Notes: a model not told the origin generated them from the sequence alone. Numbered from the stretch's first letter, positions 13,273-35,190 are shown. The stretch: 64,000 bases of DNA from Gammaproteobacteria bacterium (GCA_029263725.1 JAJUFS010000001.1:19439-83438); one strand, 5' to 3'. A program made the numbers and translations.

Positions 13273-14236
13273 GTTCCTGCAGCTGGCGGGTGCGCTGCTG
13301 CTGATCGCATCTCCATCGGCGATGGCCCTGGGCGAGGCGCCGGACGCCTGGCTCAAGGAAATGGAAAAGGCCCTCGAGAACACCAGCTTCCGCGGCACCT
13401 TCGTCTACATCCATGACGACAAGGCCGAGACCATGCTGGTCTACCACCGCGCCGGCAAGCCGGGCGAAAGCGGGCCGCGCGAGCGGCTGGTGTCGCTGAA
13501 CGGCAGTGCGCGCGAAGTGCTGCGCGACGACGACGAGATCAAGTGCGTGCTGCCGGACGACAAGATGGTGCTGGTGGAGAAGCGCCACGCCCCGGATACG
13601 CTCGCGCGCGGCCTGCCCCTGAACGCTTCCCGTTACGCCGACTACTACGAGTTCGAGCTGCTCGGTGAAGGCCGCATCGCCGGCCATGGCGCGCGCATGC
13701 TGGCGATCAAGCCCCGCGATGGCTTTCGCTACGGCTACCGCCTGTGGCTGGAGGAAAAGACCGCGCTGCCGCTGCGCTCGGAGCTCGTGAACGAGGCAGG
13801 CTTCCCGGTCGAGAAGATGATGTTCACCGAGATCGAGATCGGCGGGCCCATCGATGACGCCATGCTGGAGCTTTCCGGCATCGGCGAGGACTACACCTGG
13901 CACGTGCGCGGCGGCGAGCAGGATGCCGATGTCCGCGAGTCCGTGCCGCTCGCCTTCGAATCGCTGCCGCCAGGCTACGCCGTGACGCGCAGCGAGGTGC
14001 ATCTCGAATCCGAACGTCCTTCGTGGCACGTGGTGCTTTCCGATGGCCTGGCCTCGGTGTCGGTATTCGCCGAACCGCTGGAAGAGGGCAAGCCGGCGCT
14101 GGCCGGGCTGTCGCGCCTCGGCGCGGTGAACGCCTTCGGCCTGCGCCTCGCGCAGCATCACGTCACCGTGGTCGGCGAAGTGCCGCAGGCCACCGTCGCC
14201 GCCATCGGCGAGGCGGTGCGCTACACCGGCGAATGA
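13262..14236 (+). CDS. rseB: sigma-E regulatory protein RseB/MucB
   Basis: Signal peptide MRSKFLQLAGALLLIASPSAMA, overlap with the rseA stop, operon position, about 320 aa. Confidence 0.85.
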   Translation: MRSKFLQLAGALLLIASPSAMALGEAPDAWLKEMEKALENTSFRGTFVYIHDDKAETMLVYHRAGKPGESGPRERLVSLNGSAREVLRDDDEIKCVLPDDKMVLVEKRHAPDTLARGLPLNASRYADYYEFELLGEGRIAGHGARMLAIKPRDGFRYGYRLWLEEKTALPLRSELVNEAGFPVEKMMFTEIEIGGPIDDAMLELSGIGEDYTWHVRGGEQDADVRESVPLAFESLPPGYAVTRSEVHLESERPSWHVVLSDGLASVSVFAEPLEEGKPALAGLSRLGAVNAFGLRLAQHHVTVVGEVPQATVAAIGEAVRYTGE

Positions 14237-14718
14237 GCGCCGCCGTGCAGGAATTCATCACCGAACGCGCCCGCGTCCTGCGAGTGGAAGCGGGCATCGC
14301 CTGGGTGAGTTGCGAAAGCCAGGCAGGCTGCGCGCGTTGCGCGGCCGGGCAGGGCTGCGGCGGCGGCATCTTCTCGAAACTGCTGCGCGGCCGCCTCGAG
14401 GATCTGCCGGTGCCCACCGATCTTGCGCTCGCTCCGGGCGACTTCGTGCTCATCGGCCTTGCGCAATCCGCGGTGCAGAACGCCTCGCTGCTGCTGTACG
14501 GCCTGCCGCTCGCCGGCGTCATCCTCGGTGCGCTTGGCGGATGGCTGCTGGGTGCGAGCGATCCTGCCACCTTCCTCGGACTGGCCGCGGGCTTCGCGGC
14601 CGGCCTGCTGCTGGCGCGCCGGGGCGCGCGCCGGCTTGCCGGCAATTCCTCGCTGCAGCCGGTGTTGCTGCGCAAGCTGGCCGAAGGCGAACCTTGTTCC
14701 GCGGGGCCGTTGGCCTGA
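14233..14718 (+). CDS. rseC: SoxR-reducing system protein RseC/MucC family
   Basis: ATGA overlap with the rseB stop. N-terminal Cys-rich segment (CESQAGCARCAAGQGCGGG) followed by two TM helices. Confidence 0.8.
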   Translation: MSAAVQEFITERARVLRVEAGIAWVSCESQAGCARCAAGQGCGGGIFSKLLRGRLEDLPVPTDLALAPGDFVLIGLAQSAVQNASLLLYGLPLAGVILGALGGWLLGASDPATFLGLAAGFAAGLLLARRGARRLAGNSSLQPVLLRKLAEGEPCSAGPLA

Positions 14719-14754
14719 CAATACGGCGCAAATCGCCGGGGTTCGGAAGTTTCC

Positions 14755-16146
14755 ATGCGCATTCGCCTGCTTGCGGTCTTCGCCGCGCTCTTCCTCTTTT
14801 GCGCCAGTGCCGCTGCCGCGCCGCAAGGCCTGCCGGATTTCGTGGCGCTCGCACAGAAGGTCAATGCCACCGTGGTCAACATCAGCACCTCGCAGCCGCC
14901 GCAGCAGCTTGCCGGCGCGCTGCCGGGCTACCCGGAAGGCGAGGGCTACGATGACCTGCTGGAACGCTACCTGCCCGAGCAGGTGCCGCCGGAAGGCTTC
15001 TACGACTCCAGCTCCCTGGGCTCCGGCCTGATCATCTCCGCCGAAGGCGAGATCCTCACCAATTACCACGTCGTCAAGGACGCGCGGGAAATCATCGTCA
15101 AGCTCGCCGACCGGCGGCAGCTCAAGGCCGAGGTGCGCGGTGTGGACGTCGCCAGCGATCTCGCGCTGCTGCGCATCGACGCGAAGGACCTGCCGGTGGC
15201 GGTGATCGGCGATGCCGACGAACTGCAGGTGGGCGAGTGGGTGATGGCTATCGGGTCGCCGTTCGGCTTCGACTATTCGGTCACTTCCGGCATCGTCAGC
15301 GCCAAGGGCCGCAGCGTCGGCACGGAGCGCTACGTGCCGTACATCCAGACCGACGTCGCCATCAACCCGGGCAATTCCGGCGGGCCGCTGTTCAACCTCC
15401 AGGGCGAGGTCGTCGGCATCAATTCGCAGATCTACAGCCGCACCGGCGGCTTCATGGGCGTGTCCTTCGCCATTCCCATCAATCTCGCCATGGACGTGGT
15501 CCAGCAGCTGCGCGAGACCGGGCGTGTCAGCCGCGGCTGGCTGGGCGTGGACATCCAGGACGTGACGCGGGAACTCGCCGAGGGCTTCGGCATGTCCCGT
15601 CCCGAAGGCGCGCTGGTGCGCGCGGTGCTGCCGGACAGCCCGGCGGCGGCCGCGGGGATTCGCGTCGGCGACGTCATTCTCGAGTTCGGCGAGCGGGTGA
15701 TCCACGCCGCCAGCGAACTGCCGCCGCTGGTGGGCGGCGTGCGCGCCGGCCACGAGGTGAGCCTCAAGGTGATGCGCGACGGCCGCAGCACGCGCCTGCC
15801 GGTCACGCTGGGTGAAGTGCCGGTGGAGGAAACGCCGGTGCTGGCCGCCGCCGAACCGGAACAGAATGGCCTGCTGGGTCTCGATATCCGCGACCTGCGC
15901 TTCGCCGAGCGCGAGGCGCTGGCGCTGCCCGACGGCGGCGTGCTGATCGAGGACGTCCGGCCGGGCCCCGGCCTGGACGCCGGCCTGCAGGCGGGCGACA
16001 TCATTCTCAGCATCGACCGCCGGCCCGTGCGCAATGAAAAGGAGTTCCGCAGCGCAGTCGAGGACCTGCCCCAGGACCGCCACGTGGCCGTGCTGGTGCA
16101 GCGCGCCGGCAGCACCATGTTCCTGCCGTTGCGGGTGCGGCGATGA
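14755..16146 (+). CDS. degP: periplasmic serine endoprotease DegP/MucD (HtrA family, two PDZ domains)
   Basis: Signal peptide, catalytic GNSGGPL motif, TNYHVV, two PDZ-like C-terminal repeats. Confidence 0.93.
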   Translation: MRIRLLAVFAALFLFCASAAAAPQGLPDFVALAQKVNATVVNISTSQPPQQLAGALPGYPEGEGYDDLLERYLPEQVPPEGFYDSSSLGSGLIISAEGEILTNYHVVKDAREIIVKLADRRQLKAEVRGVDVASDLALLRIDAKDLPVAVIGDADELQVGEWVMAIGSPFGFDYSVTSGIVSAKGRSVGTERYVPYIQTDVAINPGNSGGPLFNLQGEVVGINSQIYSRTGGFMGVSFAIPINLAMDVVQQLRETGRVSRGWLGVDIQDVTRELAEGFGMSRPEGALVRAVLPDSPAAAAGIRVGDVILEFGERVIHAASELPPLVGGVRAGHEVSLKVMRDGRSTRLPVTLGEVPVEETPVLAAAEPEQNGLLGLDIRDLRFAEREALALPDGGVLIEDVRPGPGLDAGLQAGDIILSIDRRPVRNEKEFRSAVEDLPQDRHVAVLVQRAGSTMFLPLRVRR

Positions 16147-16385
16147 AGGCGGTGCTCTACAGCCGCCGCGATTGCCACCTGTGCGATGACATGCAGGCGG
16201 CGATCACGCCGTTGCTGGCGCAGCGCGGCCTGCAGCTTGCGGTGATCGACATCGACACGGATCCTGCGCTCGTCGAGCGCTTCGGCGTGCGCATCCCGGT
16301 GTTCACGCTGGATGACGAGATCATCTGCGAGGGCCGTCCGGACGAGGCGGCCGTCCGTGACGCGCTGGGACTCTCCGGCGCCTGA
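16143..16385 (+). CDS. glutaredoxin-like protein (DUF836 type)
   Basis: 80 aa with a CHLC (CxxC) motif near the N-terminus and IPVFTLDDE. ATGA overlap with the degP stop. Confidence 0.7.
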   Translation: MKAVLYSRRDCHLCDDMQAAITPLLAQRGLQLAVIDIDTDPALVERFGVRIPVFTLDDEIICEGRPDEAAVRDALGLSGA

Positions 16386-16424
16386 TCCCTTCGCGAAACT
16401 TCCCGACGCCCGCCGGGCGACCGG

Positions 16425-16430
16425 TATAAT
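16425..16430 (+). promoter_or_regulatory. candidate -10 hexamer for lepA
   Basis: Perfect TATAAT 33 nt upstream of the lepA ATG. No convincing -35 element. Confidence 0.3.
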
Positions 16431-16462
16431 GGGCCGCTTTGCGCTCCCCCACACTGGAACCC

Positions 16463-18256
<1,794 letters not shown>

Positions 18257-18275
18257 GGAAACGGAAGGAAACGGG

Positions 18276-19040
18276 ATGAGCGTGGACTTTGCCTTGCTGC
18301 TTTTCGTGCTGACGGTTGCCGGCGGCCTGATCTGGGCGTTCGATGCCGCGGTACTCGCGCCGAAGCGCCGCGCCGAGGGGCGCACCGACATGCCGGTCGT
18401 GGTGGAGTACGCGCGCTCGCTGTTCCCGGTCATCCTCATCATCTTCCTGCTGCGTTCCTTCGTCGCCGAGCCGTTCCGCATTCCATCGTCGTCGATGGAA
18501 CCGACGCTGGAGGAGGGCGATCTCATCCTCGTCAGCAAGTTCGCCTACGGCATCCGCCTGCCGGTGCTGAACCGCCTGGTGGTCGACCTCGGCACGCCCG
18601 AGCGCGGTGACGTGGTGGTGTTCCGCTTCCCGCAGGACCCGCGCCAGGATTACATCAAGCGCGTGGTCGGCCTGCCCGGCGACGAGATCGTGTACATCGA
18701 CAAGCGCCTGTACGTGAACGGCGAGCTGGTCCAGGAGGAGAGCCTCGGTCCCGCGCTCACCGAGGAAGGCTTCGAGGTGGTCGAGTACGGCGAGAAACTC
18801 GGCGAGGTCGAACACCGCATCTACAAGATGCCGCGCCGCCACGATCCGCGGCGCTTTGATATCGTGGTGCCCGAGGGACGCTATTTCGTCATGGGCGACA
18901 ACCGCGACAATTCCAACGACAGCCGTGGCTGGGGCTTCGTTCCGGACGAGAACCTCGTCGGCCGCGCCTTTCTCATCTGGATGAACTGGCGCGTGGGCGA
19001 GTGGCCGGAGTGGAACCGCATCGGCAACGTGATTCGATGA
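18276..19040 (+). CDS. lepB: signal peptidase I
   Basis: IPSSSMEPTL catalytic Ser box, YIKRVVGLPGD Lys box, GDNRDNSNDSR box. Confidence 0.95.
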   Translation: MSVDFALLLFVLTVAGGLIWAFDAAVLAPKRRAEGRTDMPVVVEYARSLFPVILIIFLLRSFVAEPFRIPSSSMEPTLEEGDLILVSKFAYGIRLPVLNRLVVDLGTPERGDVVVFRFPQDPRQDYIKRVVGLPGDEIVYIDKRLYVNGELVQEESLGPALTEEGFEVVEYGEKLGEVEHRIYKMPRRHDPRRFDIVVPEGRYFVMGDNRDNSNDSRGWGFVPDENLVGRAFLIWMNWRVGEWPEWNRIGNVIR

Positions 19041-21763: not shown

Positions 21764-22495
21764 ATGGCAAACGACATCATTCTTGGCGTGAACATCGACC
21801 ATGTCGCAACCCTGCGCCAGGTGCGGCGTGCGGACTACCCGGAGGTGCTGATGGCCGCCGAGCTTGCCGAGCAGGCCGGCGCCGGAGTGATCACCGTGCA
21901 TCTGCGCGAGGATCGCCGGCACATCCAGGACAGCGACGTGCGCGAGATCCGGGAGAGCATCGGCATCCCGCTCAATCTGGAAATGGCGGTGACCGACGAG
22001 ATGCTCGCCATCGCCGCGGACGTCCGCCCGCAGCATTGCTGCCTGGTGCCGGAACGGCGCGAGGAACTGACCACGGAGGGCGGCCTGGACGTGACCGGCA
22101 ATCTCGCGCGGCTGCGTGATGCCGTCGGCCAGCTGCACAACCACGGCTGCCAGGTGTCGCTATTCGTCGACCCGGATCCGGAGCAGCTGGATGCCGCCGC
22201 CGATACCGGCGCGAAGGTCGTCGAGCTGCACACCGGCGCGTATGCGAACGCTTCCGGCGAGGCGATGATCAACGAGCTCGCGCGTCTGCGCGACGCCGCC
22301 ATCCACGCCGAGAAGCTTGGTCTTGCCGTGCATGCCGGCCACGGTCTCAACGTGCAGAACGTGGGGCCGGTGGCGAAGCTGCCGCAGATCGTCGAGATGA
22401 ACATCGGCCACTGGCTGGTGGCACGCGCGGTGTTCGTCGGCCTCGAGCACGCCATCAAGGAGATGCTCGGCGTGATGCGGGATGCGAGGAAATGA
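21764..22495 (+). CDS. pdxJ: pyridoxine 5'-phosphate synthase
   Basis: [38 protein letters not shown] motifs. Confidence 0.95.
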
Positions 22496-22872
22496 TATTC
22501 GGCGTCGGCACCGATCTCTGCCAGATCGAAAGAATCGAGAAGGTCTACGCGAAATACGGCGATCGCTTCGTTGACCGGCTGCTCATGCCGGAGGAGCGCG
22601 CGCAGTTCGAAAGGACCCGCCGCAAGGTGCGCTTTCTCGCCATGCACTTTGCCGCCAAGGAAGCCATCGTCAAGGCCATGGGCACCGGTTTCCGCCAGGG
22701 CATCTGGATACGCGACGTCGGCTTCATCCAGGAACCCTCCGGCAAGCCGGTGCCGGTGTTCTCCGCCAACGCGCGCCGCAAGCTCGAGGAGATCGGCGCC
22801 GGCGAAGGCTTCGTTTCCCTTACGGATGAAGCCGGAATGGTCGCGGCGTTTGCCGTACTCATGAAGCGCTGA
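22492..22872 (+). CDS. acpS: holo-[acyl-carrier-protein] synthase
   Basis: [12 protein letters not shown] and [10 protein letters not shown] motifs, 126 aa, overlaps the pdxJ stop. Confidence 0.93.
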
Positions 22873-22884
22873 TCTACATTCCCC

Positions 22885-22907
22885 AGCCCGGCGATCTACG
22901 CCGGGCT
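22885..22907 (+). terminator. stem-loop after acpS (no U tract)
   Basis: agcccggcg-atcta-cgccgggct, a 9-bp perfect stem. Confidence 0.35.
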
Positions 22908-22985
22908 CCCGATGCAAGCCGCTCGCCGTCCCCGCGAAAGTCAGGGCGTGTTCATTGAACGCGTCATCGACGCTCGGGGGTTTAC

Positions 22986-24302
22986 GTGTCATTGCCAGCT
23001 GCCGTTCTGCTGTCCGGCGTTTTCCTTTCCGCGGGCGCATTGGCCGCGCCCGCGATTCTCGTCTCGCCCGATCCGCAACCGCGCGACGGCTTCGGTCTCG
23101 TGGTTGCCGCGCATGACGATCTCATTGCGGTCGGCGCGCCCGGCGCCGATACCTCCATCGCCGAGGGTTACGTGCACCTGTACGAGTTCGACGGCACGGC
23201 CTGGCGGCATGCGGCCACCCTGCAGCCGCCCGAAGGATTCACGCACGAAGGCTTCGGTCTCGGCATCGCGATCGATGCCGCGCGTGTCGTGGTCGGTGCG
23301 CCGCGGGCGGACCTGAATGGCTTTGATGACACCGGCGCGGCTTACGTGTTCGTGCGCACCGCCGACGGCTTTCGCCTGGAAGCGCGATTGACCGCGGCCG
23401 ATGCCGCGCCGCGCACCGGCTTCGGCACATCCGTGGCGCTGGACGGCGGCAGGCTGATCGTCGGCGCAAACGGGCGAATCGACGAGTTCGGGCCGCCGCT
23501 GGGCGCGGCCTACGTGTTCGAGCATGACGACACGCACGGCTGGCAGCAGCACGCCAGGCTCCAGCCCGCCGCCTACCGCGACAGTCTCTACGGCAGCGAA
23601 GTCGCGTTGAGCGCGTCGTCAGCCGCGGTCGGCGCGCCCAACAACGGCGTCGACGGCAAGGGCATGGTGATGTTCTATGTGCGTGAAGACAGCGGCTGGT
23701 TCGAGAACGGCATCATCGCGCCCGAGCTGGGCGGCAGCCTCACCTCCTTCGCCAGTGCGCGAATGGTGATGGAGGGCAGCCGCATCGCCATTAGCGCCGA
23801 CAGCGACCAGGCAAGCTTCGGCGGCGCGCAGGGCAGGGTGTATGTCTACGAGCGTGGCGCGGATGGCTGGCAGGAACAGGCCGTGCTCGCGCCGCCCTCG
23901 GACGAGGGCCATGGCTTCGGCTGGTCGCTCGCCATGGCGGGCGATCACATCGCGGTGACGCAGACCAATGGCAGCCAGGTGTTCCTGTTCCGCAGGAATG
24001 CCAGCGGCTGGTCATTGATCGACACCCTCGCGCCGGAAGGCTTCATTTCCGTATCGCGGCGCGCGCTGGCGTTGACCGCGAACCGCCTCGTGGTGGGCAG
24101 CGAGGGCGAGGCGCAGGTGCATGAACTCGCCGAAACGGCCGATGGCAATGCTGCGTCATCCCCCGATGCCGGCGGTGACGTGGTGCTGATCGTCGAACCC
24201 ATCCCCGAGCGCAAGAGTGCAAGCGGTGGCGGCGGCATCGGCGGCTGGCTTGCGTTCATGCTCCTGGCGCTCGCTCCCAGGCTTCGCGTCCGCCGGGAAT
24301 GA
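22986..24302 (+). CDS. secreted seven-blade FG-GAP-like beta-propeller protein with a GlyGly-CTERM-like sorting tail
   Basis: Signal peptide, then about seven repeats of the form (D/E/T)GFG..(V/I)A..(D/G)..(L/I)(I/V)VGAP. C-terminus is SASGGGGIGGWLAFMLLALAPRLRVRRE. Confidence 0.7.
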   Translation: MSLPAAVLLSGVFLSAGALAAPAILVSPDPQPRDGFGLVVAAHDDLIAVGAPGADTSIAEGYVHLYEFDGTAWRHAATLQPPEGFTHEGFGLGIAIDAARVVVGAPRADLNGFDDTGAAYVFVRTADGFRLEARLTAADAAPRTGFGTSVALDGGRLIVGANGRIDEFGPPLGAAYVFEHDDTHGWQQHARLQPAAYRDSLYGSEVALSASSAAVGAPNNGVDGKGMVMFYVREDSGWFENGIIAPELGGSLTSFASARMVMEGSRIAISADSDQASFGGAQGRVYVYERGADGWQEQAVLAPPSDEGHGFGWSLAMAGDHIAVTQTNGSQVFLFRRNASGWSLIDTLAPEGFISVSRRALALTANRLVVGSEGEAQVHELAETADGNAASSPDAGGDVVLIVEPIPERKSASGGGGIGGWLAFMLLALAPRLRVRRE

Positions 24303-24693
24303 TCTCGAACATCGGATGCGCGGTGAGCGAGACATGACCGCGCAGCCGTTGCGCCCATTGCGGCGCGCGCTGATCGAGTTTCGCCTGCAGGTGGGCGCGC
24401 TCGAATCGCATCTGCCCGCACGTCACCGTCATGCGGATGTCGTTACCGGGCGCGAGTATGCGTCCTGCATCGAAGCGATAGCCGCGCGCCTGCGATTCCT
24501 GCAGCACGCCGTCCAGGTAGCAGCCAATGGCCTCAAGCGGCTGCGGCAGGTCGCGGAAACGCGATAGCTGCGGATGTTGCCGGTAGCCGCGTGTCTCGCC
24601 CGCCAGCACCTTCTGCGCGAGCAGCGCTTCGCGCCACAGTGCCACCAGCCCGGCGGGATCAAGATGACGGGGATGCAGACTCCACAGCCGCAT
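24256..24693 (-). CDS. pyrimidine dimer DNA glycosylase / endonuclease V-like protein
   Basis: MRLWSLHPRHLDPAGLVALWREALLAQKVL..GYRQHPQL pattern recalled from bacterial DenV-like (Pyr_excise) proteins. It lies 6 nt downstream of the LLM gene. Confidence 0.6.
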   Translation of the reverse strand: MRLWSLHPRHLDPAGLVALWREALLAQKVLAGETRGYRQHPQLSRFRDLPQPLEAIGCYLDGVLQESQARGYRFDAGRILAPGNDIRMTVTCGQMRFERAHLQAKLDQRAPQWAQRLRGHVSLTAHPMFEIIPGGREAWERAPGA

Positions 24694-24699
24694 GCGTGA

Positions 24700-25689
24700 T
24701 CACAGGCCGCGCGCGGCTTCCGCGGCAAGCTCGTAGGATCGCATGCGCGCGTCGTGGTCGAAGATCTGCGAGGTAATGATCAGCTCGTCGGCCTGCGTAC
24801 GTTCGATGAAGGCGCGCATCGCCTCGCGCACGTCCTCTGCCGTGCCGATGCCGCTGCACGACAGCACTTCGTCGATGAGATTGCGCTCGTGCGGCAACAG
24901 GCTGTCGCGGTAATGCGCGACCGGCGGCGGCAAGGGTGTCGGCCGGCCGCGACGCAGGTTGACGAAGGCCTGTTGCATGGAGCTTGCAAGATATTCCGCT
25001 TCCTCGCGGCTGTCGGCGGCAAACACGTTGAAGCCGAGCATCACGTACGGCTTCTGCAGCCGCTCCGAGGGCTGGAAGCGCGCGCGATACAGCGTGATGG
25101 CATCGAACAGCTGTGCAGGCGCGAAATGCGAGGCGAAGGAGTAGGGCAGGCCGAGCGCCGCGGCGAGCTGCGCACCGAACAGGCTGGAGCCGAGAATCCA
25201 CACCGGGATGTTCAGGCCGGCGCCGGGCACGGCGATCACCGCCTGTCCCGGTTCCGGATCGTCGAAGTAATGCAGCAGTTCGACGACGTCGCGGGGAAAG
25301 GCTTCCGGGTCGGTGAGCAGGTCGCGCCTGAGCGCGCGCGAAGTCGGCGAGTCGGAACCCGGCGCGCGCCCAAGACCGAGATCGATCCTGCCCGGGAACA
25401 GCGATTCCAGCGTGCCGAACTGCTCGGCGATCACCAGCGGCGAATGGTTCGGCAGCATGATGCCGCCCGCGCCGACGCGAATGCGTTCGGTGACCGAGGC
25501 GACCATCTGGATGAGCAGGCTGGTGGCGGCGCTGGCCACGCCCGGCATGCCGTGATGCTCCGCCATCCAGTAGCGCCGGAAACCCAGCCGTTCGCAATGC
25601 TGCGCCAGCTCGCGCGTATGCCGGAAGGATTCGGCAGCAGTACTGCCGTCGTTGATGGGCGAAAGATCGAGTACGGAAAGCGGGAACAT
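24700..25689 (-). CDS. LLM-class flavin-dependent oxidoreductase (luciferase-like)
   Basis: [11 protein letters not shown]...[26 protein letters not shown] is typical of YhbW-type luciferase-like monooxygenases. Confidence 0.85.
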
Positions 25690-25750
25690 GGCAGGCCTCA
25701 CGCATGAAAGCGACAAGGCTAACCCCTGGCGGCAAGGGGTTGAAGGCTGA

Positions 25751-25780
25751 AAGCAAAACGCCCGGCAGCGCCGGGCGTTT
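25751..25780 (-). terminator. intrinsic terminator after the EF-hand gene
   Basis: Minus strand reads ACGCCCGGC-gcu-GCCGGGCGU followed by UUUUGCUUU. Confidence 0.65.
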
Positions 25781-25799
25781 CGTCAGCCGTGCGGTGCGA

Positions 25800-26042
25800 T
25801 CACTCGTGCACCGGCACCTCTTCCTGCTCGGCCGAAACCTGCTTGAGTTCGTCCTCGGCAAGCTGGCCGTCCTGGTTCTGGTCGTAGGCGTCGAAGTTCG
25901 CGGAAATCGCTTCCACGGAGGCGGCTTCTTCCCTGGAGAGCTGGCCGTCGCCATCCTGGTCGTGATCGGCAATCCTGACTTCTTCGTTGGCAAACGCCGC
26001 GCCGAACGCCGCGGCAAGGGCAATCGCGAGAATCTTCTTCAT
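25800..26042 (-). CDS. small secreted EF-hand calcium-binding protein
   Basis: Signal peptide MKKILAIALAAAFGAAFA. Two canonical 12-residue EF loops, DQDGDGQLSREE and DQNQDGQLAEDE. Confidence 0.75.
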   Translation of the reverse strand: MKKILAIALAAAFGAAFANEEVRIADHDQDGDGQLSREEAASVEAISANFDAYDQNQDGQLAEDELKQVSAEQEEVPVHE

Positions 26043-28194: not shown

Positions 28195-28971
28195 TCAGGC
28201 TGGCGCCGCCATGCCTTCGATGATGAGTTCCTCGCGGTGCGCCGCGCGCAGGCGGTGCAGCAGCTTGTCCGCGGCATGGAACATGCCGTTGAGGTCGCGC
28301 GGGGCGGGCGAGGCGGTGACCGCGCCGATGCGCGCGTGCACGCGCCGCGCGTCCAGCGCGAGGCGGACCTTCTCCAGGGCCACGTGCGCCGCCGCCTGGC
28401 CGGTCTCGGGCAGAAGGATCGCGAATTCGCCGGCTTCCAGCCGTCCCGCCACATCGCTGATGCGCAGGCTGTCGGCGAGCACTTCGGCGACCTGGCGACA
28501 TTGACCGTCCTGGTCGGCGTCGAGGGTGAGATAGGCCAGCGTGACCGGCTCGCCATTGCGATGGCAGACCGCCAGCACCGAGCCGGCGCGCTCGAAGAAG
28601 CCGTGGCGGCTCGCCAGCCCGGTTTCCTCGTCGACCGCGGCGAGTTCGTGGGCGGTTTCGCGGTTCACGTGCAGCCAGCGCGCCAGCAGGGTGACCACCA
28701 CGAACAGCGCGCCCTGCAGCAGCAGGTTGGTCAGCCAGCTGGCCGGCTCGAAGTAGGGACTGCCGGCCTCCAGCGAGACCATGGCCCACAGGCCGGCGGC
28801 GAGCACCGCGGCGATGATCGCGGTGGTGCGCTCCAGGTACCAGCCCGCGAAGATCAGCGGCACGAAGTACAGCGGCCCGGCGTACATGGCGAAGCGGCCG
28901 TAGTGGTCGATGGCGGCCGCGGCCAGGATGCCCGCGAACACCAGCAGCATGATCAGGAAGCGGTTGTTCAT
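28195..28971 (-). CDS. membrane GGDEF-domain protein with a degenerate active site (EAGEF) and a retained RxxD I-site
   Basis: About four N-terminal TM helices. DEETGLASRHGFF matches D.LTGL.NRR.F. RISDVAGRLEAGEFAILLP aligns with RxxD-x5-GGDEF. The FK.iND..GH..GD segment is shortened to LDADQDGQ. Confidence 0.8.
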   Translation of the reverse strand: MNNRFLIMLLVFAGILAAAAIDHYGRFAMYAGPLYFVPLIFAGWYLERTTAIIAAVLAAGLWAMVSLEAGSPYFEPASWLTNLLLQGALFVVVTLLARWLHVNRETAHELAAVDEETGLASRHGFFERAGSVLAVCHRNGEPVTLAYLTLDADQDGQCRQVAEVLADSLRISDVAGRLEAGEFAILLPETGQAAAHVALEKVRLALDARRVHARIGAVTASPAPRDLNGMFHAADKLLHRLRAAHREELIIEGMAAPA

Positions 28972-29645: not shown

Positions 29646-31139
29646 TTACAGGGCCGGCACGGTGTCTGCGGGCAGTTCGATCATGTAGGTGTCGACGTTG
29701 TCGTCGTTGCCCGAGTTCCAGTTCGAGTTGAACAGCACCTTGGTGAAGTCGCGGTTCACCGCCGCGTGCGGCTCGGAGAAGTAGTCGCCGCCCTTGTTGT
29801 AGGTGTGCGCCAGGTTGAGGATGCGCGGGTTCGGCTTCAGTTCCACCGCCATCACCTTGTTGGCGTACCAGCCGCTGCCGGCAACTTTCTCCTTGTAGGT
29901 CGAGATCAGCACCCAGCCCGGCTTGTAGAAGTTGCGCGCCGAGAGATGCATGGCGGTGGAGTTGCCGCCGGTGTAGATCTGCCACAGGTTGGTGGACTGG
30001 CCGTTGGCGAGGTCCCACATCCGCACCCAGCCGGAGTCGTAGTCGCCGGCGATCACCACGTCGCGGCCGTCGGCGTCCAGGCCCAGGTCGGAGTGCGGGC
30101 TCTTCGGCGCAAGACCGATGGCGAAGTTGAAGTCGCGCGAGAAGGACATCATGCCGCAGGGCTTGCTGCGCGTGCCGAGCGAGCCGCCCGAGCAGGCCGG
30201 CGAGCTCCAGGAGGGCACCACGTACTCGCCCGTCGCGCTGATGCTGATGTGATCCGGCGCCGGCACGCCGCCGCCGTCCTTCGCGAAGTCATACACGCCG
30301 GCGATCTCGTCCTTGAGCATGTCGTAGGAAATCATGCCAAGGCCCTTGTTGTTCGAATCCAGCACCACCAGGCCCCACCAGCGCGCGTCCATGGACGGCG
30401 AGCCTTCGGTCTTGGTCGAGACCTTGGCGGCGGACGGCCAGATCTGCTTGATGCTGGTGGCATCATGCCCCGCGATCTTCTGCACGCGGGTGAAGTCGGT
30501 CACCACGTTCTTCTCGCCGGTGGCGACGTTGTACTCGGTGATGGTCATGCCGCCGCCGTTCGGGATCACGTACATGACGTCCGGGTGCGTCGGATGCCAC
30601 TGCGGTTCGACGCCGGCGCCGTTGAGGTCGAGCTTCTTGATGAGCTTCAGCGTCTGGGTGTCGTACAGGTACCAGGACTGGCCGCGCGAATAGACGATGA
30701 AGCGCGAGTCGTCCGCGTTGAACGGCTGGCGGCGCGCATAGTCGTTGCGCGCGAAGCCGGACAGGCCTTCGGCGTCGGCATCGGTGGCGCGCACGATGCA
30801 GGAGCCGTAGACCGGATCGTTGTAGGGCTTGCCCTTGGCGGGCTTGGCGAAGCCGGAAAGCGGCTTGCTCGCATCCTGGCCTTCGACCAGCGCGAAGCTG
30901 CCGCTGTAGGTCGCGGCACAGGGGCCGGACTTGAAGCTGATGGCTTCGAGGCCGTCATCCGAACCCGGATCGGTCGTGGTCGGCGGCGCGCTGTCCGCGG
31001 GCACTTCGACCGCCGGGGGCGGGTTCGCGCCGGAAGGCGCGGTGTCCGGGGCGCTACCGCCGCCACCGCCACCGCCGCCGCAGCCGGCAATGAGAAGGCC
31101 AAGAGGGAGGATCATCTTTGCGAGGTTGGAGTTCCACAT
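29646..31139 (-). CDS. beta-propeller-like lipoprotein of unknown function, downstream of tandem c-di-GMP riboswitches
   Basis: AGGUGA lies 7 nt before the ATG at 31139. Lipobox LLIAGC is followed by Gly8 and a Pro/Ala/Thr-rich linker. The remaining roughly 400 aa is W/Y/G-rich and resembles TolB/DPP-IV-like propeller repeats. Confidence 0.75.
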   Translation of the reverse strand: MWNSNLAKMILPLGLLIAGCGGGGGGGGSAPDTAPSGANPPPAVEVPADSAPPTTTDPGSDDGLEAISFKSGPCAATYSGSFALVEGQDASKPLSGFAKPAKGKPYNDPVYGSCIVRATDADAEGLSGFARNDYARRQPFNADDSRFIVYSRGQSWYLYDTQTLKLIKKLDLNGAGVEPQWHPTHPDVMYVIPNGGGMTITEYNVATGEKNVVTDFTRVQKIAGHDATSIKQIWPSAAKVSTKTEGSPSMDARWWGLVVLDSNNKGLGMISYDMLKDEIAGVYDFAKDGGGVPAPDHISISATGEYVVPSWSSPACSGGSLGTRSKPCGMMSFSRDFNFAIGLAPKSPHSDLGLDADGRDVVIAGDYDSGWVRMWDLANGQSTNLWQIYTGGNSTAMHLSARNFYKPGWVLISTYKEKVAGSGWYANKVMAVELKPNPRILNLAHTYNKGGDYFSEPHAAVNRDFTKVLFNSNWNSGNDDNVDTYMIELPADTVPAL

Positions 31140-31705: not shown

Positions 31706-33949
31706 TCAGGCGGAAGCGCCCATCGCGCGGCGGGCGCGCTTGGCCAGCAGGTGGGCGTAGATGGCGAGTACCGACTCGGTGAAGCGGTCGATGGAGTGAT
31801 TGCGGGCGAAAGCGACGGCCGCCTCGGACATCTCCCGGCGCAGCGGCTCGCATTCCAGCAGCTCGCGCACCCGGCGGCACCAGGCGCGGCGATCCTCGGC
31901 GGTCTTGAAACCGGTGACGCCGTCGCGGATGACGTCGTCGATGCCGCTGGAGCGCACGGCGATGCAGGGCAGGCCCGCCGCCATGGCCTCGAGCAGCACC
32001 ATGCCCTGGGTTTCGGTCTTGGAGGCGAACAGGAACAAGTCGCCAAGGTGGTAATAGCGCGGGATCACCTCCGGCTTCACCGCGCCGGCGAGGATGATCA
32101 CCTCGGCAAGCCCAAGGTCGCCGATGCGCGCCTCGATGCGCCTGCGCTCCGGTCCGTCGCCGATGATCACGAAGCGGAATGGCTGGTGCAGCTCGCGTTT
32201 CAGCAGCGCGACCGCCTCCAGCAGGAAATCCAGGTTCTTCTCGCGGCTGAGGCGCGACACGGTGACCAGCACGCGCTCCTCGCCGATGCCGAGCTTGCCT
32301 TTCAGCGCCGCGACTGCTCCGGCGTCGACGCGGTTGAAGCGCTCGAACTCGATGCCGGTGGGCAGCACGAAGATGTCGGTCTTCACGCCGATCAGGCGCA
32401 GGTATTCCTCCGCGGAGTAGGTCGGCACGATCACGCCGTCGCACTTGTTGGAGAAGCGTCTCACCAGGTAGTGCGAGATCAGGTTGCGGAACAGCGGCCC
32501 CGGGATGCTTCTGACGAAATGCGCGTAGTGCTCAAGGCGCGTGTGATAGGTGTAGACCGCCGGCACGCCGAGGCGCCGCGCCCACAACAGTCCGAGGGAG
32601 CCGCACCAGATCGGGTGGTGGCAGTGGATGATGTCGGGGCGGAAGTCGCGGATGGCGCGGTGGACGCGCGGATGAAAGATGTTGGCGAGGCGGAACTCGC
32701 GCTTCTCGCCCCAGATGAACAGCGGCGGCAGGCGGCAGCTGCCATCGCGAGGCGCATCGCCGCGGTCGCGGCGGCGGTAGTCGGGCGCGACAACCAGCGT
32801 CTCGCGGCCCGCGGCGTCAAGGCCGCGGCGCAGGCGGTCGATGGAAATCGGCACGCCGCCGATGAACGGCAGGTAGTTGTTGGCGAACATCGCCACGCGT
32901 CGCACCTCGTCGAGCCAGGGCGCGCCGTCGACGTCGAAGCTCGGGTAATAGTCGCGGTCGGTGAAGATCAGCACGTACAGCTTGATGGCGATCAGCGTGA
33001 AGATGCTGACGATGAGCAGGAAGTTCAGGTAGCCGACGTAGAACAGCGAGTGGATGAACAGCCACAGGCCCTCCAGCGTGCGGAACACCGGATGCTGGCC
33101 GATGTCCAGCGGCTGGGCGGCGATGTCCACCCGCGCGCCGTCCACGCTGACCTTCACGTAGTGATAGAAGCTGTCGTCGTCGTTCATCACCAGGCCGCCG
33201 GCGCCGCCGGTGGTGACGTACTCCGTGCCGCCTTCGCTGTGGCGGGCGAACACCGGCAGGTTGGCGGAGAACACCGCGCGCACGCCATGGCGCGAAAACA
33301 GTTGAACGAGCCGTTCGCGCACTTCCTCGAAGGCGAAGTGATCCTCCGGCGAGGCGAACCAGTTGTCGCTGCCGCTTTCGAACAGCGGATGGCTCATGAA
33401 TACGAAGGCGTGCCGCTCGGTGCGTTCGCGCAGCTGTTCCTCCAGCCAGTGCAGCTGCCAGTCGAACGAGGTCTCGCCGGTGCTGTCGAGGAAGATGAAG
33501 CGGCTGTTGCCGGCGGTGAAGCTGAAGAAGTAGGGGCCGAAGCGGTCGTAATAGCGGAACGCGCCGAAGTTGCTCGCCTCGCGCGGCCCGAAGGTGAGCA
33601 GGCAGGGCACATCGAGATACCCGAGCGAGCCGCTCAGCGCGCGGTACTTGTCCTCGCCGCCGCCGCTCACCGCGTTGCCGGCTGACACCACGAAGTCCAC
33701 GCCGGAGGCGTTCAGCATCGGCAGTATCTTGCGCTCGAAGATGCCGATGGAATTGTTGATGTTGCCGACCACCGCGAAGCTGAACCGCTCCTTGCCCTCG
33801 AGCGAGGCCTCGATCTCGCGGATGGCGCGCGGGTGCATGGTCTCGTAGTCGCCGGCGAAGAAATTCAGATAGACCTTGTAGCCGACCAGCAGCAGCACGA
33901 TGGCCACGTTCAGCCAGAAGACGAGCTTGAGCCTCGCGCGCGCCGCCAT
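31706..33949 (-). CDS. fusion protein: N-terminal TM, degenerate metallophosphoesterase-like domain, TM segment, GT4-family glycosyltransferase
   Basis: C-terminal half has GT4 features (ANNYLPFIGGV, EX7E as ETQGMVLLEAMAAGLPCIA). N-terminal half has the calcineurin-like layout with motifs substituted: GNINN for DxH, AGNAV for GD, GPRE for GNHE. Confidence 0.8.
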   Translation of the reverse strand: MAARARLKLVFWLNVAIVLLLVGYKVYLNFFAGDYETMHPRAIREIEASLEGKERFSFAVVGNINNSIGIFERKILPMLNASGVDFVVSAGNAVSGGGEDKYRALSGSLGYLDVPCLLTFGPREASNFGAFRYYDRFGPYFFSFTAGNSRFIFLDSTGETSFDWQLHWLEEQLRERTERHAFVFMSHPLFESGSDNWFASPEDHFAFEEVRERLVQLFSRHGVRAVFSANLPVFARHSEGGTEYVTTGGAGGLVMNDDDSFYHYVKVSVDGARVDIAAQPLDIGQHPVFRTLEGLWLFIHSLFYVGYLNFLLIVSIFTLIAIKLYVLIFTDRDYYPSFDVDGAPWLDEVRRVAMFANNYLPFIGGVPISIDRLRRGLDAAGRETLVVAPDYRRRDRGDAPRDGSCRLPPLFIWGEKREFRLANIFHPRVHRAIRDFRPDIIHCHHPIWCGSLGLLWARRLGVPAVYTYHTRLEHYAHFVRSIPGPLFRNLISHYLVRRFSNKCDGVIVPTYSAEEYLRLIGVKTDIFVLPTGIEFERFNRVDAGAVAALKGKLGIGEERVLVTVSRLSREKNLDFLLEAVALLKRELHQPFRFVIIGDGPERRRIEARIGDLGLAEVIILAGAVKPEVIPRYYHLGDLFLFASKTETQGMVLLEAMAAGLPCIAVRSSGIDDVIRDGVTGFKTAEDRRAWCRRVRELLECEPLRREMSEAAVAFARNHSIDRFTESVLAIYAHLLAKRARRAMGASA

Positions 33950-33951
33950 GA

Positions 33952-35010
33952 TCAGCCCCGCGCGACTTCGCGATGGGTGATGACCGCGCCGATGAGCATG
34001 CCGAGATGCGCGCTCAGGAAGCGCCAGACGACCACCACCAGCAGCAGGTGCGAGGCCTGGGCGAGGTCGGCGAACAGGAAGCCGAACACGCCCTCGGCGA
34101 TACCGGCGGCGCCCGGCGTGGGCGAGAAGTACATGATGAAGGTCAGCACCGTCATCAGCCCGAGCACCAGGAACCAGTCGATCTCGTAGCCGAGTGCGAC
34201 CAGGATCAGCGCCGGGAAGGAGAACAGCGTCACCAGGTACAGCACGCTGTTGGCGAGGGACAGCAGCACGTTGCCCCAGCCGCCGCGGAAGTAGTCGCGG
34301 AAGCCGCGCGCGAAGTGCAGCAGCTCACGCTCGGCCGCGAAGCGCCAGTCACGGTGGCGGCGCGAGCTAATCATGCGCAGCCAGCGCATTCCCTTCAGCA
34401 GGCCGTGCGTCGGCGCCAGCAGCCATTGCGGCCGCAGCAGCGCGAAGCCGAAGAAGGCGAGATAGGCGAGCAGGATCAGCAGCAGGTAGAACAGGAACTG
34501 GCCGCGCAGCGGCACGTCCTGCAGCCGCGGGATGACGAGCAGCAGCACCGGGGTGGCGGCGAAGATCAGCACCATCACGATCATGGTGCGGATGGTGGTC
34601 GCGCTGGTGCCGGTGCCCACCGGCACGCCCAGCCTGCGCAGGTACCAGATCTGCGCGAAGCCGCCGCCGGTCACCAGCGGGGTGATGTTGGAGAAGAACA
34701 GGTTGATGAAGACCAGCTTGACCATTCCCGTGGGGGGAATGTCATGGCCCAGCGCCCTGAGGGTGTAGTGCAGCCGCGCGCCGTCGGTATACCAGTGCAG
34801 CAGCAGCAGGGCGGCCGCGGCGGCGAGAAAGCCGGGCTGCAGCAGCCGCCGGTCGAACACCAGGCCCTCGTTGGCCACGTCCCGGTAGACCACCGCCAGC
34901 CCGATCGCCGTCAGCGAGATGAAGATCAGCGCAAACAGCGGCAGGCGCCATCGCGGTCCTATGGGAGTGCTCTGGATCTCGTCGGGCATGGCGGCGTCTT
35001 GCAGGCGCAT
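33952..35010 (-). CDS. flippase-like membrane protein (lysylphosphatidylglycerol-synthase TM-region / UPF0104 family)
   Basis: About eight TM helices, FINLFFSNITPLVTGGGFAQIWYL motif typical of TIGR00374-like proteins. Its stop lies 2 nt before the start of the GT4 fusion gene. Confidence 0.7.
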   Translation of the reverse strand: MRLQDAAMPDEIQSTPIGPRWRLPLFALIFISLTAIGLAVVYRDVANEGLVFDRRLLQPGFLAAAAALLLLHWYTDGARLHYTLRALGHDIPPTGMVKLVFINLFFSNITPLVTGGGFAQIWYLRRLGVPVGTGTSATTIRTMIVMVLIFAATPVLLLVIPRLQDVPLRGQFLFYLLLILLAYLAFFGFALLRPQWLLAPTHGLLKGMRWLRMISSRRHRDWRFAAERELLHFARGFRDYFRGGWGNVLLSLANSVLYLVTLFSFPALILVALGYEIDWFLVLGLMTVLTFIMYFSPTPGAAGIAEGVFGFLFADLAQASHLLLVVVVWRFLSAHLGMLIGAVITHREVARG

Positions 35011-35113
35011 CAACGCGTGAAGGTAGCCCGCCGCCGCGGGTGGCGGAATATGTGAAGTCCTGTAGGAAAGCGGGCCGACAGGACAGGGATTTCCGTTTAC
35101 AATGCGCGGCCTC

Positions 35114-35190
35114 GCCCTCGTAGCTCAGCTGGATAGAGCGTCCCCCTCCTAAGGGGAAGGTCGCAGGTTCGACTCCTGCCGAGGGCGCCA
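35114..35190 (+). tRNA. tRNA-Arg (anticodon CCT)
   Basis: Cloverleaf folded by hand: acceptor GCCCTCG/CGAGGGC, D arm GCTC/GAGC, anticodon stem TCCCC/GGGGA with loop CTCCTAA, T arm GCAGG-TTCGACT-CCTGC, encoded CCA. Confidence 0.93.

Follow-up and report, generated by a model that had tools for sequence, protein, structure and literature searches.

A flippase-like protein paired with a GT4 glycosyltransferase that carries a degenerate metallophosphoesterase-fold domain: a candidate glycolipid cassette of marine and halophilic bacteria

In a 64,000-nucleotide stretch of a gammaproteobacterial genome (GCA_029263725.1, JAJUFS010000001.1:19439-83438; hereafter the window, with positions counted from its first letter) we identified a two-gene cassette on the minus strand. 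The second of its genes (31706-33949, -) encodes a fused protein of 747 amino acids (aa) consisting of a transmembrane helix (TM1), a metallophosphoesterase-fold domain that has lost its metal ligands, a second transmembrane helix (TM2) and a GT4 glycosyltransferase domain. The first gene (33952-35010, -) encodes a flippase-like membrane protein of the UPF0104 / LPG_synthase_TM / PplT family, which is 352 aa long from the ATG at 35010 or 353 aa from an alternative in-frame TTG start at 35013. Both genes are co-directional, with the flippase-like gene first, and just 2 nucleotides (nt) lie between its stop codon and the ATG of the fused gene (TGA tc ATG). We propose, with a probability of about 0.5, that this cassette glycosylates a membrane lipid and moves the product across the inner membrane, with the degenerate domain acting as a binding module.

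A pseudo-phosphoesterase fused to a glycosyltransferase

The fused gene is one unbroken open reading frame (ORF), and the identical 747-aa protein was called on nine independent metagenome contigs, on which the 352-aa LPG_synthase_TM gene always precedes it where the contig reaches. More than 120 full-length homologues were found (729-758 aa, 56-83% identity), and relatives with the ~740-aa architecture are encoded in 432 species genomes of the Genome Taxonomy Database (GTDB), which was scanned with one genome per species. An earlier, preliminary description of this DNA had named a sequencing or assembly frameshift that merges two genes as an explanation that would undo its reading; the unbroken frame, the nine contigs and the 432 genomes refute such a frameshift, or a chimera, as an assembly or annotation artefact, and we give it practically no weight. 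The best 80 of the 432 genomes belong to Marinobacter, Idiomarina/Pseudidiomarina, several non-aeruginosa Pseudomonas, Halopseudomonas, Marinimicrobium, Porticoccaceae, Oleiphilaceae, the alphaproteobacterium Fodinicurvata and metagenome-assembled genomes (MAGs) of Desulfobacterales. Most carriers are Marinobacter, Idiomarina or non-aeruginosa Pseudomonas, and some are Fodinicurvata or Desulfobacterales. The carrier lineages are essentially marine or halophilic. Public annotations of the protein are generic ("glycosyltransferase", "membrane-associated protein") or, by transfer, "1,2-diacylglycerol 3-alpha-glucosyltransferase".

The layout first described, a TM helix, a calcineurin-like fold, a hydrophobic segment and a GT4 domain with an intact EX7E motif, was borne out by Pfam, AlphaFold (AF2) modeling and translation. 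Among the domain models that had been suggested as a check, PF13439, PF00534 and PF03706 matched above their cut-offs, but Metallophos (PF00149) remained sub-threshold, with 17.3 bits against a cut-off of 21.5 over residues 76-228. Other sequence comparisons of the N-terminal domain (residues 55-280; 33110-33787, -) gave a phmmer match to GpdQ at E 0.004, the SpdA/CpdA diesterases as the closest NCBIfam models (E 1.7e-5 and 0.008), and five relatives with intact motifs (P0161-P0165) that match it at E 1e-16 to 1e-28. An AF2 model of residues 1-343, built from 47 sequences, has a mean predicted local distance difference test score (pLDDT) of 85 and a predicted template modeling score (pTM) of 0.81. 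With this model, Foldseek retrieved Rv0805 (E 1.3e-12), mammalian and plant purple acid phosphatases, and GpdQ, all at E 1e-12 to 1e-9 and probability 1.00; the best template modeling score (TM-score) was 0.76, and the four-layer alpha/beta sandwich is present. Thus, as modeled, the N-terminal domain is a calcineurin-like (metallophosphoesterase) fold, which is established by the structural match and not by sequence alone.

To place the domain among its relatives, its profile was compared with 1.84 billion cluster representatives. This yielded 952 relatives at E<=1e-30, the best 150 of which were aligned and read at ten motif positions. Most of these 150 are stand-alone proteins of ~250-450 aa with the signature D-[RKQ]-D / N-H-[DE] / H-x / H-x-H. 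Representatives of ~720-750 aa with one matched domain, on the other hand, are all GT4 fusions (P0245, P0246, P0247, P0251, P0253, P0254, P0257, P0276, P0316 and P0387). All ten of these divergent fused representatives keep between zero and two of the seven ligand or catalytic residues, and the protein in the window keeps none (0/7). Degeneration of the domain therefore goes with glycosyltransferase fusion in all ten fused clusters examined.

The replacements within the subfamily of the window were counted in 120 homologues of the fused protein. At former motif I (N63-I-N65-N66-S67; 33749-33763, -), which reads GD-x-H/R in intact relatives, N63 is found in 120/120 members in place of Asp, N65 in 119/120 in place of Arg or His, and N66 in 120/120. 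Former motif II (G91-N92; 33674-33679, -) is GD in intact relatives, and N92, again in 120/120, stands where these have the bridging Asp. Former motif III (G121-P-R-E124; 33578-33589, -) corresponds to GNH[D/E]; position 122 is A, E, P, Q or D, position 123 is His in 60 members and Asn in 52, and E124 is kept in 120/120 (D/E in intact relatives). Position 186 of former motif IV (S186-H187; 33389-33394, -; H-x in intact relatives) is Gly in 100/120 and Ser in 11/120 where intact relatives have His. Finally, former motif V (N230-L-P232; 33254-33262, -) replaces H-x-H, with N230 in 119/120 and Ser or Pro at position 232 in 116/120, both at former His positions. Three near-invariant Asn residues (N63, N92 and N230) hence occupy former Asp/His sites. 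The motif strings quoted in the preliminary description (NINNS at 63-67, GN at 91-92, GPRE at 121-124 and ETQGMVLLE at 646-654) were all recovered by translation, as was SH at 186-187, and the GHxH that it reported as absent is represented by NLP (230-232).

The parent stand-alone clade, judged from the best 150 relatives, itself mostly has GD-x-R/K/Q rather than the canonical GD-x-H in motif I, having given up one classical His ligand and kept the others. Since the immediate intact relatives already carry GD-x-R/K/Q, the His-to-Asn difference at residue 65 does not count as a loss when measured against the nearest ancestors.

Asp-to-Asn and His-to-Asn changes at these sites are classical inactivating mutations of the metallophosphoesterase superfamily. 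Because the Asp/His ligand sites have changed to Asn and other residues, canonical binuclear hydrolysis is excluded, and we are highly confident that the N-terminal domain lacks canonical catalysis. The original suggestion that the metal motifs are systematically replaced in a non-catalytic or repurposed domain thus agrees with the alignment. No second phosphoesterase paralogue was found in a search of the 64-kb window.

The degenerate domain is nevertheless under purifying selection. Using codon alignments of 77 orthologues and the window (Nei-Gojobori; 798 pairs with a synonymous divergence, dS, of 0.2-1.5), we obtained median ratios of nonsynonymous to synonymous divergence (dN/dS) of 0.197 for the N-terminal domain, 0.189 for TM2 and 0.157 for the glycosyltransferase domain. 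Features common to intact relatives other than the ligands are also retained, namely D155, the G248-G249 (GGAG) loop and H263. This is what one sees in a domain repurposed for binding or coupling and not in a relic, and a binding role appears likely because the domain is conserved as tightly as the glycosyltransferase.

Strong purifying selection could also be expected if the domain were still an enzyme, for instance a mononuclear or metal-independent phosphodiesterase or transferase that acts on the flipped glycolipid in the periplasm and replaces the deacetylase of the GpgSDF and HexSDF systems discussed below. Such an activity might draw on the invariant polar residues at the old active site (N63, N66, S67, N92, E124, N230) and on H123 or H187, one or the other of which occurs in many members. 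Moreover, the operon of one divergent branch (locus L088, described below) encodes an intact paralogue, and some phosphoester chemistry would accordingly belong to the ancestral pathway. However, none of the seven ligand or catalytic residues is kept, the changes are of the classically inactivating kind, and the replacements differ between fused subfamilies, with N, E, S or D at position 63, G, N, A, Q or S at position 186, and N, G, S, A or K at position 230. Such variation is not what one would expect of a conserved new catalytic mechanism, and we consider residual enzyme activity quite improbable.

Membrane topology and the glycosyltransferase domain

The fused protein has two hydrophobic segments only, at approximately residues 3-33 and 295-331, and in the full-length AlphaFold model (pLDDT 80) they appear as single helices at residues 4-30 and 290-329. 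TM1 (residues 4-30; 33860-33940, -), supported by the AF2 helix and a hydropathy peak, is predicted to be a signal-anchor with a cytoplasmic N-terminus. The N-terminal tail carries on average 2.97 Lys+Arg and 0.03 Asp+Glu in the query and 120 homologues, whereas the 20 residues after TM1 carry 1.68 and 4.10, respectively. TM2 (residues 290-329; 32963-33082, -), defined by the AF2 helix, is predicted to return the chain to the cytoplasm.

GT4 enzymes depend on nucleotide sugars, which are cytoplasmic. Together with the positive-inside N-terminal tail and the two TM helices, this need points to a topology in which the N-terminus and the glycosyltransferase are inside and the degenerate domain is outside. 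The relatives are in line with this: two intact proteins (P0163 and P0165) have a signal-peptide-like start that runs directly into the first beta-strand, and two others (P0162 and the intact L088 paralogue) share the TM-domain-TM layout. Given its position between two TM helices, the positively charged tail and the signal-peptide or TM anchoring of intact relatives, we predict with fairly high confidence that the N-terminal domain is periplasmic and that the membrane separates it from the glycosyltransferase.

TM2 is the best conserved of the three regions, with 63% mean identity to the window. It is ~40 residues long and has invariant S301, G306, Y307 and N309; this combination of length, conservation and invariant polar residues is unusual for a mere membrane anchor.

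The C-terminal half comprises the N-terminal, acceptor-side Rossmann lobe of a GT4 enzyme (Glyco_transf_4, PF13439; residues 363-537; 32339-32863, -; 101.9 bits, cut-off 28.5) and the C-terminal, nucleotide-sugar lobe (Glycos_transf_1, PF00534; residues 551-711; 31817-32299, -; 136.2 bits, cut-off 26.4). The EX7E motif (E646-TQGMVLL-E654; 31988-32014, -) is read directly from the translation. E646, E654, R566, K571 and G364-G365 are invariant in 32/32 aligned members and, judging from these motifs, this half looks catalytically intact. In Foldseek searches the domain matched MshA, BshA, PimB', PimA and WaaG, with E-values down to 4e-22 and TM-scores normalized to the target (TMt) up to 0.84.

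Of 18,950 NCBIfam models, the best for 32/32 members is the alpha-monoglucosyl-diacylglycerol synthase family (NF049988; best E 2.4e-67), and the second-best, again for 32/32, is the N-acetylglucosaminyl-phosphatidylglycerol (GlcNAc-phosphatidylglycerol) synthase GpgS (NF053787; E 3.2e-41), ahead of MshA and BshA. The alignment to NF049988 runs end to end, from residue 351 to 738 against model positions 2-391 of 398. We conclude from these comparisons that the enzyme is a relative of lipid glycosyltransferases that falls outside both characterized families, and we somewhat favor a lipid as its acceptor.

The flippase-like partner, genomic context and a possible mechanism

The preliminary description placed a LysylPG-synthase-TM/UPF0104 protein 2 nt upstream of the fused gene, and this assignment stands: the partner matches LPG_synthase_TM (PF03706) with 110.3 bits (cut-off 33.4) and TIGR00374 with 85.2 bits (cut-off 43.2). 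Against the GpgF model GlcN_PG_flip (NF053789) it scores 39.8 bits and does not reach the cut-off of 320, and a sequence search of solved structures returned no match for it. In 63 of 80 related loci, the fused gene is immediately preceded by a UPF0104 gene. This gene is missing from that position in the other 17: a Pseudomonas clade, Halopseudomonas pelagia, three Desulfobacterales MAGs, one Marinobacter and one truncated contig. Across the window and the 80 loci, the flippase-like gene is the sole conserved partner; the other neighbors in the window (a 497-aa lipoprotein, a GGDEF protein, sucA, a DJ-1-like and a cupin gene) do not recur by the fused gene in any of the 80. Genes conserved around the cassette in Marinobacter (DUF481, rhodanese/UPF0176, DUF1722, GntR and DsbA-like) were set aside as lineage synteny of unrelated housekeeping functions and not as part of the system.

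The divergent branches vary this arrangement. In the P0316 branch, the UPF0104 gene overlaps the fused gene by 11 nt. In the P0257 branch (L084:2-6129), a DedA/VTT gene holds the UPF0104 position, preceded by a YfhO-type GT-C, and a DUF374 protein follows the fused gene. DedA/VTT proteins are another putative lipid translocator family. The P0276/P0398 locus (L088:1802-7223), a metagenomic operon, encodes, in order, a CDP-alcohol phosphatidyltransferase (224 aa), a GtrA-like protein (139 aa), an intact TM-phosphoesterase-TM protein (338 aa), an LPG_synthase_TM protein (353 aa) and the fusion (740 aa). The intact paralogue scores 271 bits to the domain profile with all motifs intact, and this operon hence combines an active and a dead paralogue. 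The common theme of these branches is a lipid or lipid-linked substrate together with a putative translocator, and the origin of the degenerate domain evidently lies in an active extracytoplasmic enzyme, which can still share an operon with it, as in L088. Around the intact stand-alone relatives P0256, P0260, P0265 and P0162, no recurrent GT4 or flippase neighbors were found, and L088 alone ties an intact paralogue to the cassette. One of these relatives, P0162 (L081:5856-7562; 568 aa), combines a DedA/VTT domain weakly similar to the undecaprenyl-phosphate transporter UptA with an intact phosphoesterase relative, followed by a C-terminal TM helix.

These contexts could also fit a route to envelope glycans, in which the GT4 domain makes or extends a sugar linked to polyprenyl or another lipid carrier, a UPF0104, DedA or GtrA protein flips it, and the sugar is used outside for lipopolysaccharide (LPS), capsule, periplasmic glucan or exopolysaccharide (EPS), with the degenerate domain binding the carrier-lipid phosphate or the polymer. 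In one divergent branch the neighbors of the fused gene include DedA/VTT and YfhO, a GT-C enzyme that acts outside the cytoplasm and uses lipid-linked sugars, GtrA adjoins in another, an intact relative is fused to a UptA-like DedA domain, and many of the matching GT4 families are polysaccharide enzymes (EpsE, stp2/stp3, TuaC). On the other hand, the top two curated families for 32/32 members are glycosyltransferases with diacylglycerol or phosphatidylglycerol acceptors, by 10-26 orders of magnitude in E-value, and no polysaccharide gene (Wzx/Wzy, GT-C or initiating transferase) is conserved nearby in the window and the 80 gammaproteobacterial loci. We therefore regard an envelope-glycan route as unlikely.

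The preliminary description saw in the cassette a fused, degenerate counterpart of the PlcP-Agt pair, which remodels phospholipids into glycolipids. Spelled out as a model of lipid remodeling under phosphate starvation, the phosphoesterase half, or its ancestor, would supply diacylglycerol for the glycosyltransferase to glycosylate. The comparison has some appeal, as the glycosyltransferase is closest to alpha-monoglucosyl-diacylglycerol synthase, the carrier taxa are marine, and the PlcP metallophosphoesterase is encoded beside the GT4 enzyme Agt in marine bacteria (PMC4796936, PMC8528852). Yet a domain that has lost its ligands cannot produce diacylglycerol, it is predicted to lie across the membrane from the glycosyltransferase (its relatives being secreted or anchored outside), and its nearest curated phosphoesterases are of the cyclic-nucleotide and glycerophosphodiesterase types (CpdA/SpdA/GpdQ). 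In addition, the 63 upstream regions of the window's cassette and of 62 related loci were searched for a Pho box, and the best match scored 9.1 of 14, compared with 8.8 of 14 in shuffled sequences. Since these matches are no better than those in shuffled sequence, regulation by phosphate starvation was dropped, and the remodeling model as a whole appears highly improbable.

Returning to the synthesis and export of a membrane glycolipid, the cassette could work as follows. The fused protein would be a two-pass inner-membrane protein whose C-terminal GT4 domain is cytoplasmic and tethered by TM2, and this domain would use a nucleotide sugar to glycosylate diacylglycerol or a phospholipid, for example phosphatidylglycerol, in the inner leaflet. 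The UPF0104/PplT protein would then carry the glycolipid to the periplasmic leaflet, as has been shown for MprF (PMC11980842) and proposed for GpgF and HexF (PMC12713373). In the periplasm the degenerate domain, descended from extracytoplasmic metallophosphoesterases, may bind a phosphoester or glycolipid headgroup. It would then take up the product once flipped, or else respond to a ligand in the periplasm and relay this to the glycosyltransferase via TM2, possibly in complex with the flippase-like partner. Any specific role for the domain is tentative at best. Of this picture, the gene structure, the fold, the lost ligands, the purifying selection, the conserved pairing of the genes and the intact glycosyltransferase motifs are demonstrated, whereas the topology, the lipid acceptor, the flipping and the function of the degenerate domain are inferred.

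A variant of this idea would make the domain a periplasmic ligand sensor and the fused protein a one-component transmembrane receptor-glycosyltransferase. An external phosphoester (a phospholipid or glycolipid headgroup, free phosphate or a glycerophosphodiester) would act through TM2 to switch cytoplasmic glycolipid synthesis, and the flippase-like partner would complete a feedback circuit by which salt-adapted bacteria adjust how much glycolipid their outer leaflet contains. We consider this decidedly unlikely.

Several points weigh against glycolipid synthesis and flipping with a periplasmic binding module. The glycosyltransferase scores below the equivalog cut-offs of both lipid families (188.1 bits compared with 400 for NF049988, for which all 32 members fall short, and 120.5 compared with 480 for NF053787), and its best structural matches are the soluble-acceptor GT4 enzymes MshA and BshA. 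The topology is argued from the positive-inside rule and from relatives, the stretch that follows TM2 is acidic, and the inter-domain arrangement is uncertain, with a pTM of 0.54 for the full-length model. As the substituted residues vary outside the subfamily of the window, the Asn triad is not universal. Finally, ~20% of loci lack an adjacent flippase-like gene, and the pairing is thus not obligatory, at least in cis; flippase activity of stand-alone UPF0104 proteins, including GpgF, is itself unproven (PMC12713373).

Within the window the pair looks like a self-contained unit, since a tRNA-Arg(CCT) gene on the other strand (35114-35190, +) lies ~100 nt upstream, between the cassette and sucA, and the nearest same-strand gene downstream begins 566 nt on. 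Scans for consensus promoters and terminators at the cassette found nothing above chance. In Pseudomonas taeanensis, which lacks the flippase-like gene at this locus, a phage-type integrase gene (L001:4506-5558) immediately precedes the fused gene. Taken with the nearby tRNA-Arg gene in the window, this is a hint that mobile DNA has, in some lineages, rearranged the cassette or its flank.

Elsewhere in the window, a 497-aa ORF (29646-31139, -) begins with a lipoprotein-like segment, after which come eight consecutive Gly residues (LLIAGCGGGGGGGGS), and has neither a Pfam family nor a homologue in the 80 related loci. Also downstream and on the same strand as the cassette is a gene for a 258-aa GGDEF-domain membrane protein (28195-28971, -; 43.9 bits), which is not kept beside the cassette elsewhere. 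Four further long ORFs of 401-793 aa (14221-16083, 16157-18538, 21835-23040 and 24659-26023, all -) match no Pfam family at E<=1e-5; the DNA is 66% G+C, and some of these four may be shadow ORFs of opposite-strand genes.

Glycolipids and headgroup-modified phospholipids alter membrane charge, salt tolerance and antibiotic susceptibility, and genes for them are still being found in Gram-negative bacteria. The cassette probably makes a lipid whose genes are so far unassigned in Marinobacter, Idiomarina, halotolerant Pseudomonas and related marine or halophilic genera. It also provides a clean bacterial example of a pseudoenzyme, with identifiable intact ancestors, an intact paralogue in one operon and degeneration that accompanies glycosyltransferase fusion, and it makes testable the function of a dead phosphoesterase that would sit across the membrane from the enzyme to which it is fused.

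Comparison with known systems

The closest parallels are gpgSDF of Pseudomonas aeruginosa, published in 2025, which makes and probably flips glucosaminyl-phosphatidylglycerol (GlcN-PG; PMC12713373), and HexSDF of Clostridioides difficile, which is analogous according to its citation in the same paper. Like these systems, the cassette combines a predicted cytoplasmic GT4 enzyme for a membrane lipid, a UPF0104/COG0392 flippase-like protein and a third module that would be directed to the headgroup. Its glycosyltransferase and partner match the GlcN_PG_synth (120 bits) and GlcN_PG_flip (39.8 bits) models, far under the cut-offs of 480 and 320. It departs from GpgSDF and HexSDF in having as third module a dead metallophosphoesterase fold that is joined to the glycosyltransferase and predicted to be periplasmic, and in placing the flippase gene first. 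No gene for a deacetylase of the kind found in those two systems was detected in the cassette of the window or among the conserved neighbors in the 80 loci.

Mgs-type enzymes are monotopic, peripheral proteins without TM helices or an extracytoplasmic domain. The fused protein resembles Mgs/alMGS (NF049988, its best curated family) in being a retaining-type GT4 enzyme with EX7E, but differs in having TM helices and a predicted extracytoplasmic domain, and its score is 188 bits where the family requires 400. As in PlcP-Agt, a module of the metallophosphoesterase superfamily is linked to a GT4 glycolipid synthase relative in marine and Pseudomonas lineages; PlcP, however, is an active, Pho-regulated phospholipase C on the same side of the membrane as Agt, whereas the domain in the cassette is without ligands, predicted to be periplasmic and not preceded by a Pho box. 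This distinction from PlcP draws on the ligands, the predicted topology and the Pho box.

The flippase-like partner belongs to the same PF03706 TM family as MprF and the stand-alone PplT/YbhN proteins, and the principle of coupling an enzyme that modifies lipid headgroups to this translocator is shared. Lipid translocation by the PF03706-family TM domain has been reported for MprF (PMC11980842). A preprint survey of PplT domains catalogued their frequent fusion to GT-A or GT-B domains and noted the E. coli operon ybhP-clsB-ybhN, with no mention of the phosphoesterase architecture (bioRxiv 10.1101/2022.03.11.483950). Unlike in MprF, the translocator and the enzyme are here encoded by separate genes that appear translationally coupled, and the GT4 protein has two TM helices of its own and an additional domain.

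Non-catalytic calcineurin-like folds are known from eukaryotes: GAP50 and VPS29 serve as anchors or scaffolds and not as enzymes. Both were among the Foldseek matches of the N-terminal domain (Plasmodium GAP50, 3tgh, E 2.8e-11; retromer VPS29, 8ttd, E 1e-6). The domain described here is like them in being a metallophosphoesterase fold without canonical catalysis, but it is bacterial, lies between the two TM helices of a glycosyltransferase and occurs in an unrelated context.

Our literature search found no paper that joins metallophosphoesterase, glycosyltransferase, flippase and glycolipid, and nothing specific on this architecture or on glucosyl-phosphatidylglycerol genes. The "undescribed route" of the preliminary description thus holds for the system itself in the literature searched, but is too strong for the pairing of a glycosyltransferase with a flippase, given GpgSDF (PMC12713373) and the PplT fusions (10.1101/2022.03.11.483950). 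The cassette is accordingly a lead for bacterial membrane-lipid biology and pseudoenzyme evolution and not a categorically new system: the logic of glycosyltransferase plus flippase is already known, and what is new here is a glycosyltransferase with its own two TM helices and a predicted extracytoplasmic pseudo-phosphoesterase, carried by at least 432 species.

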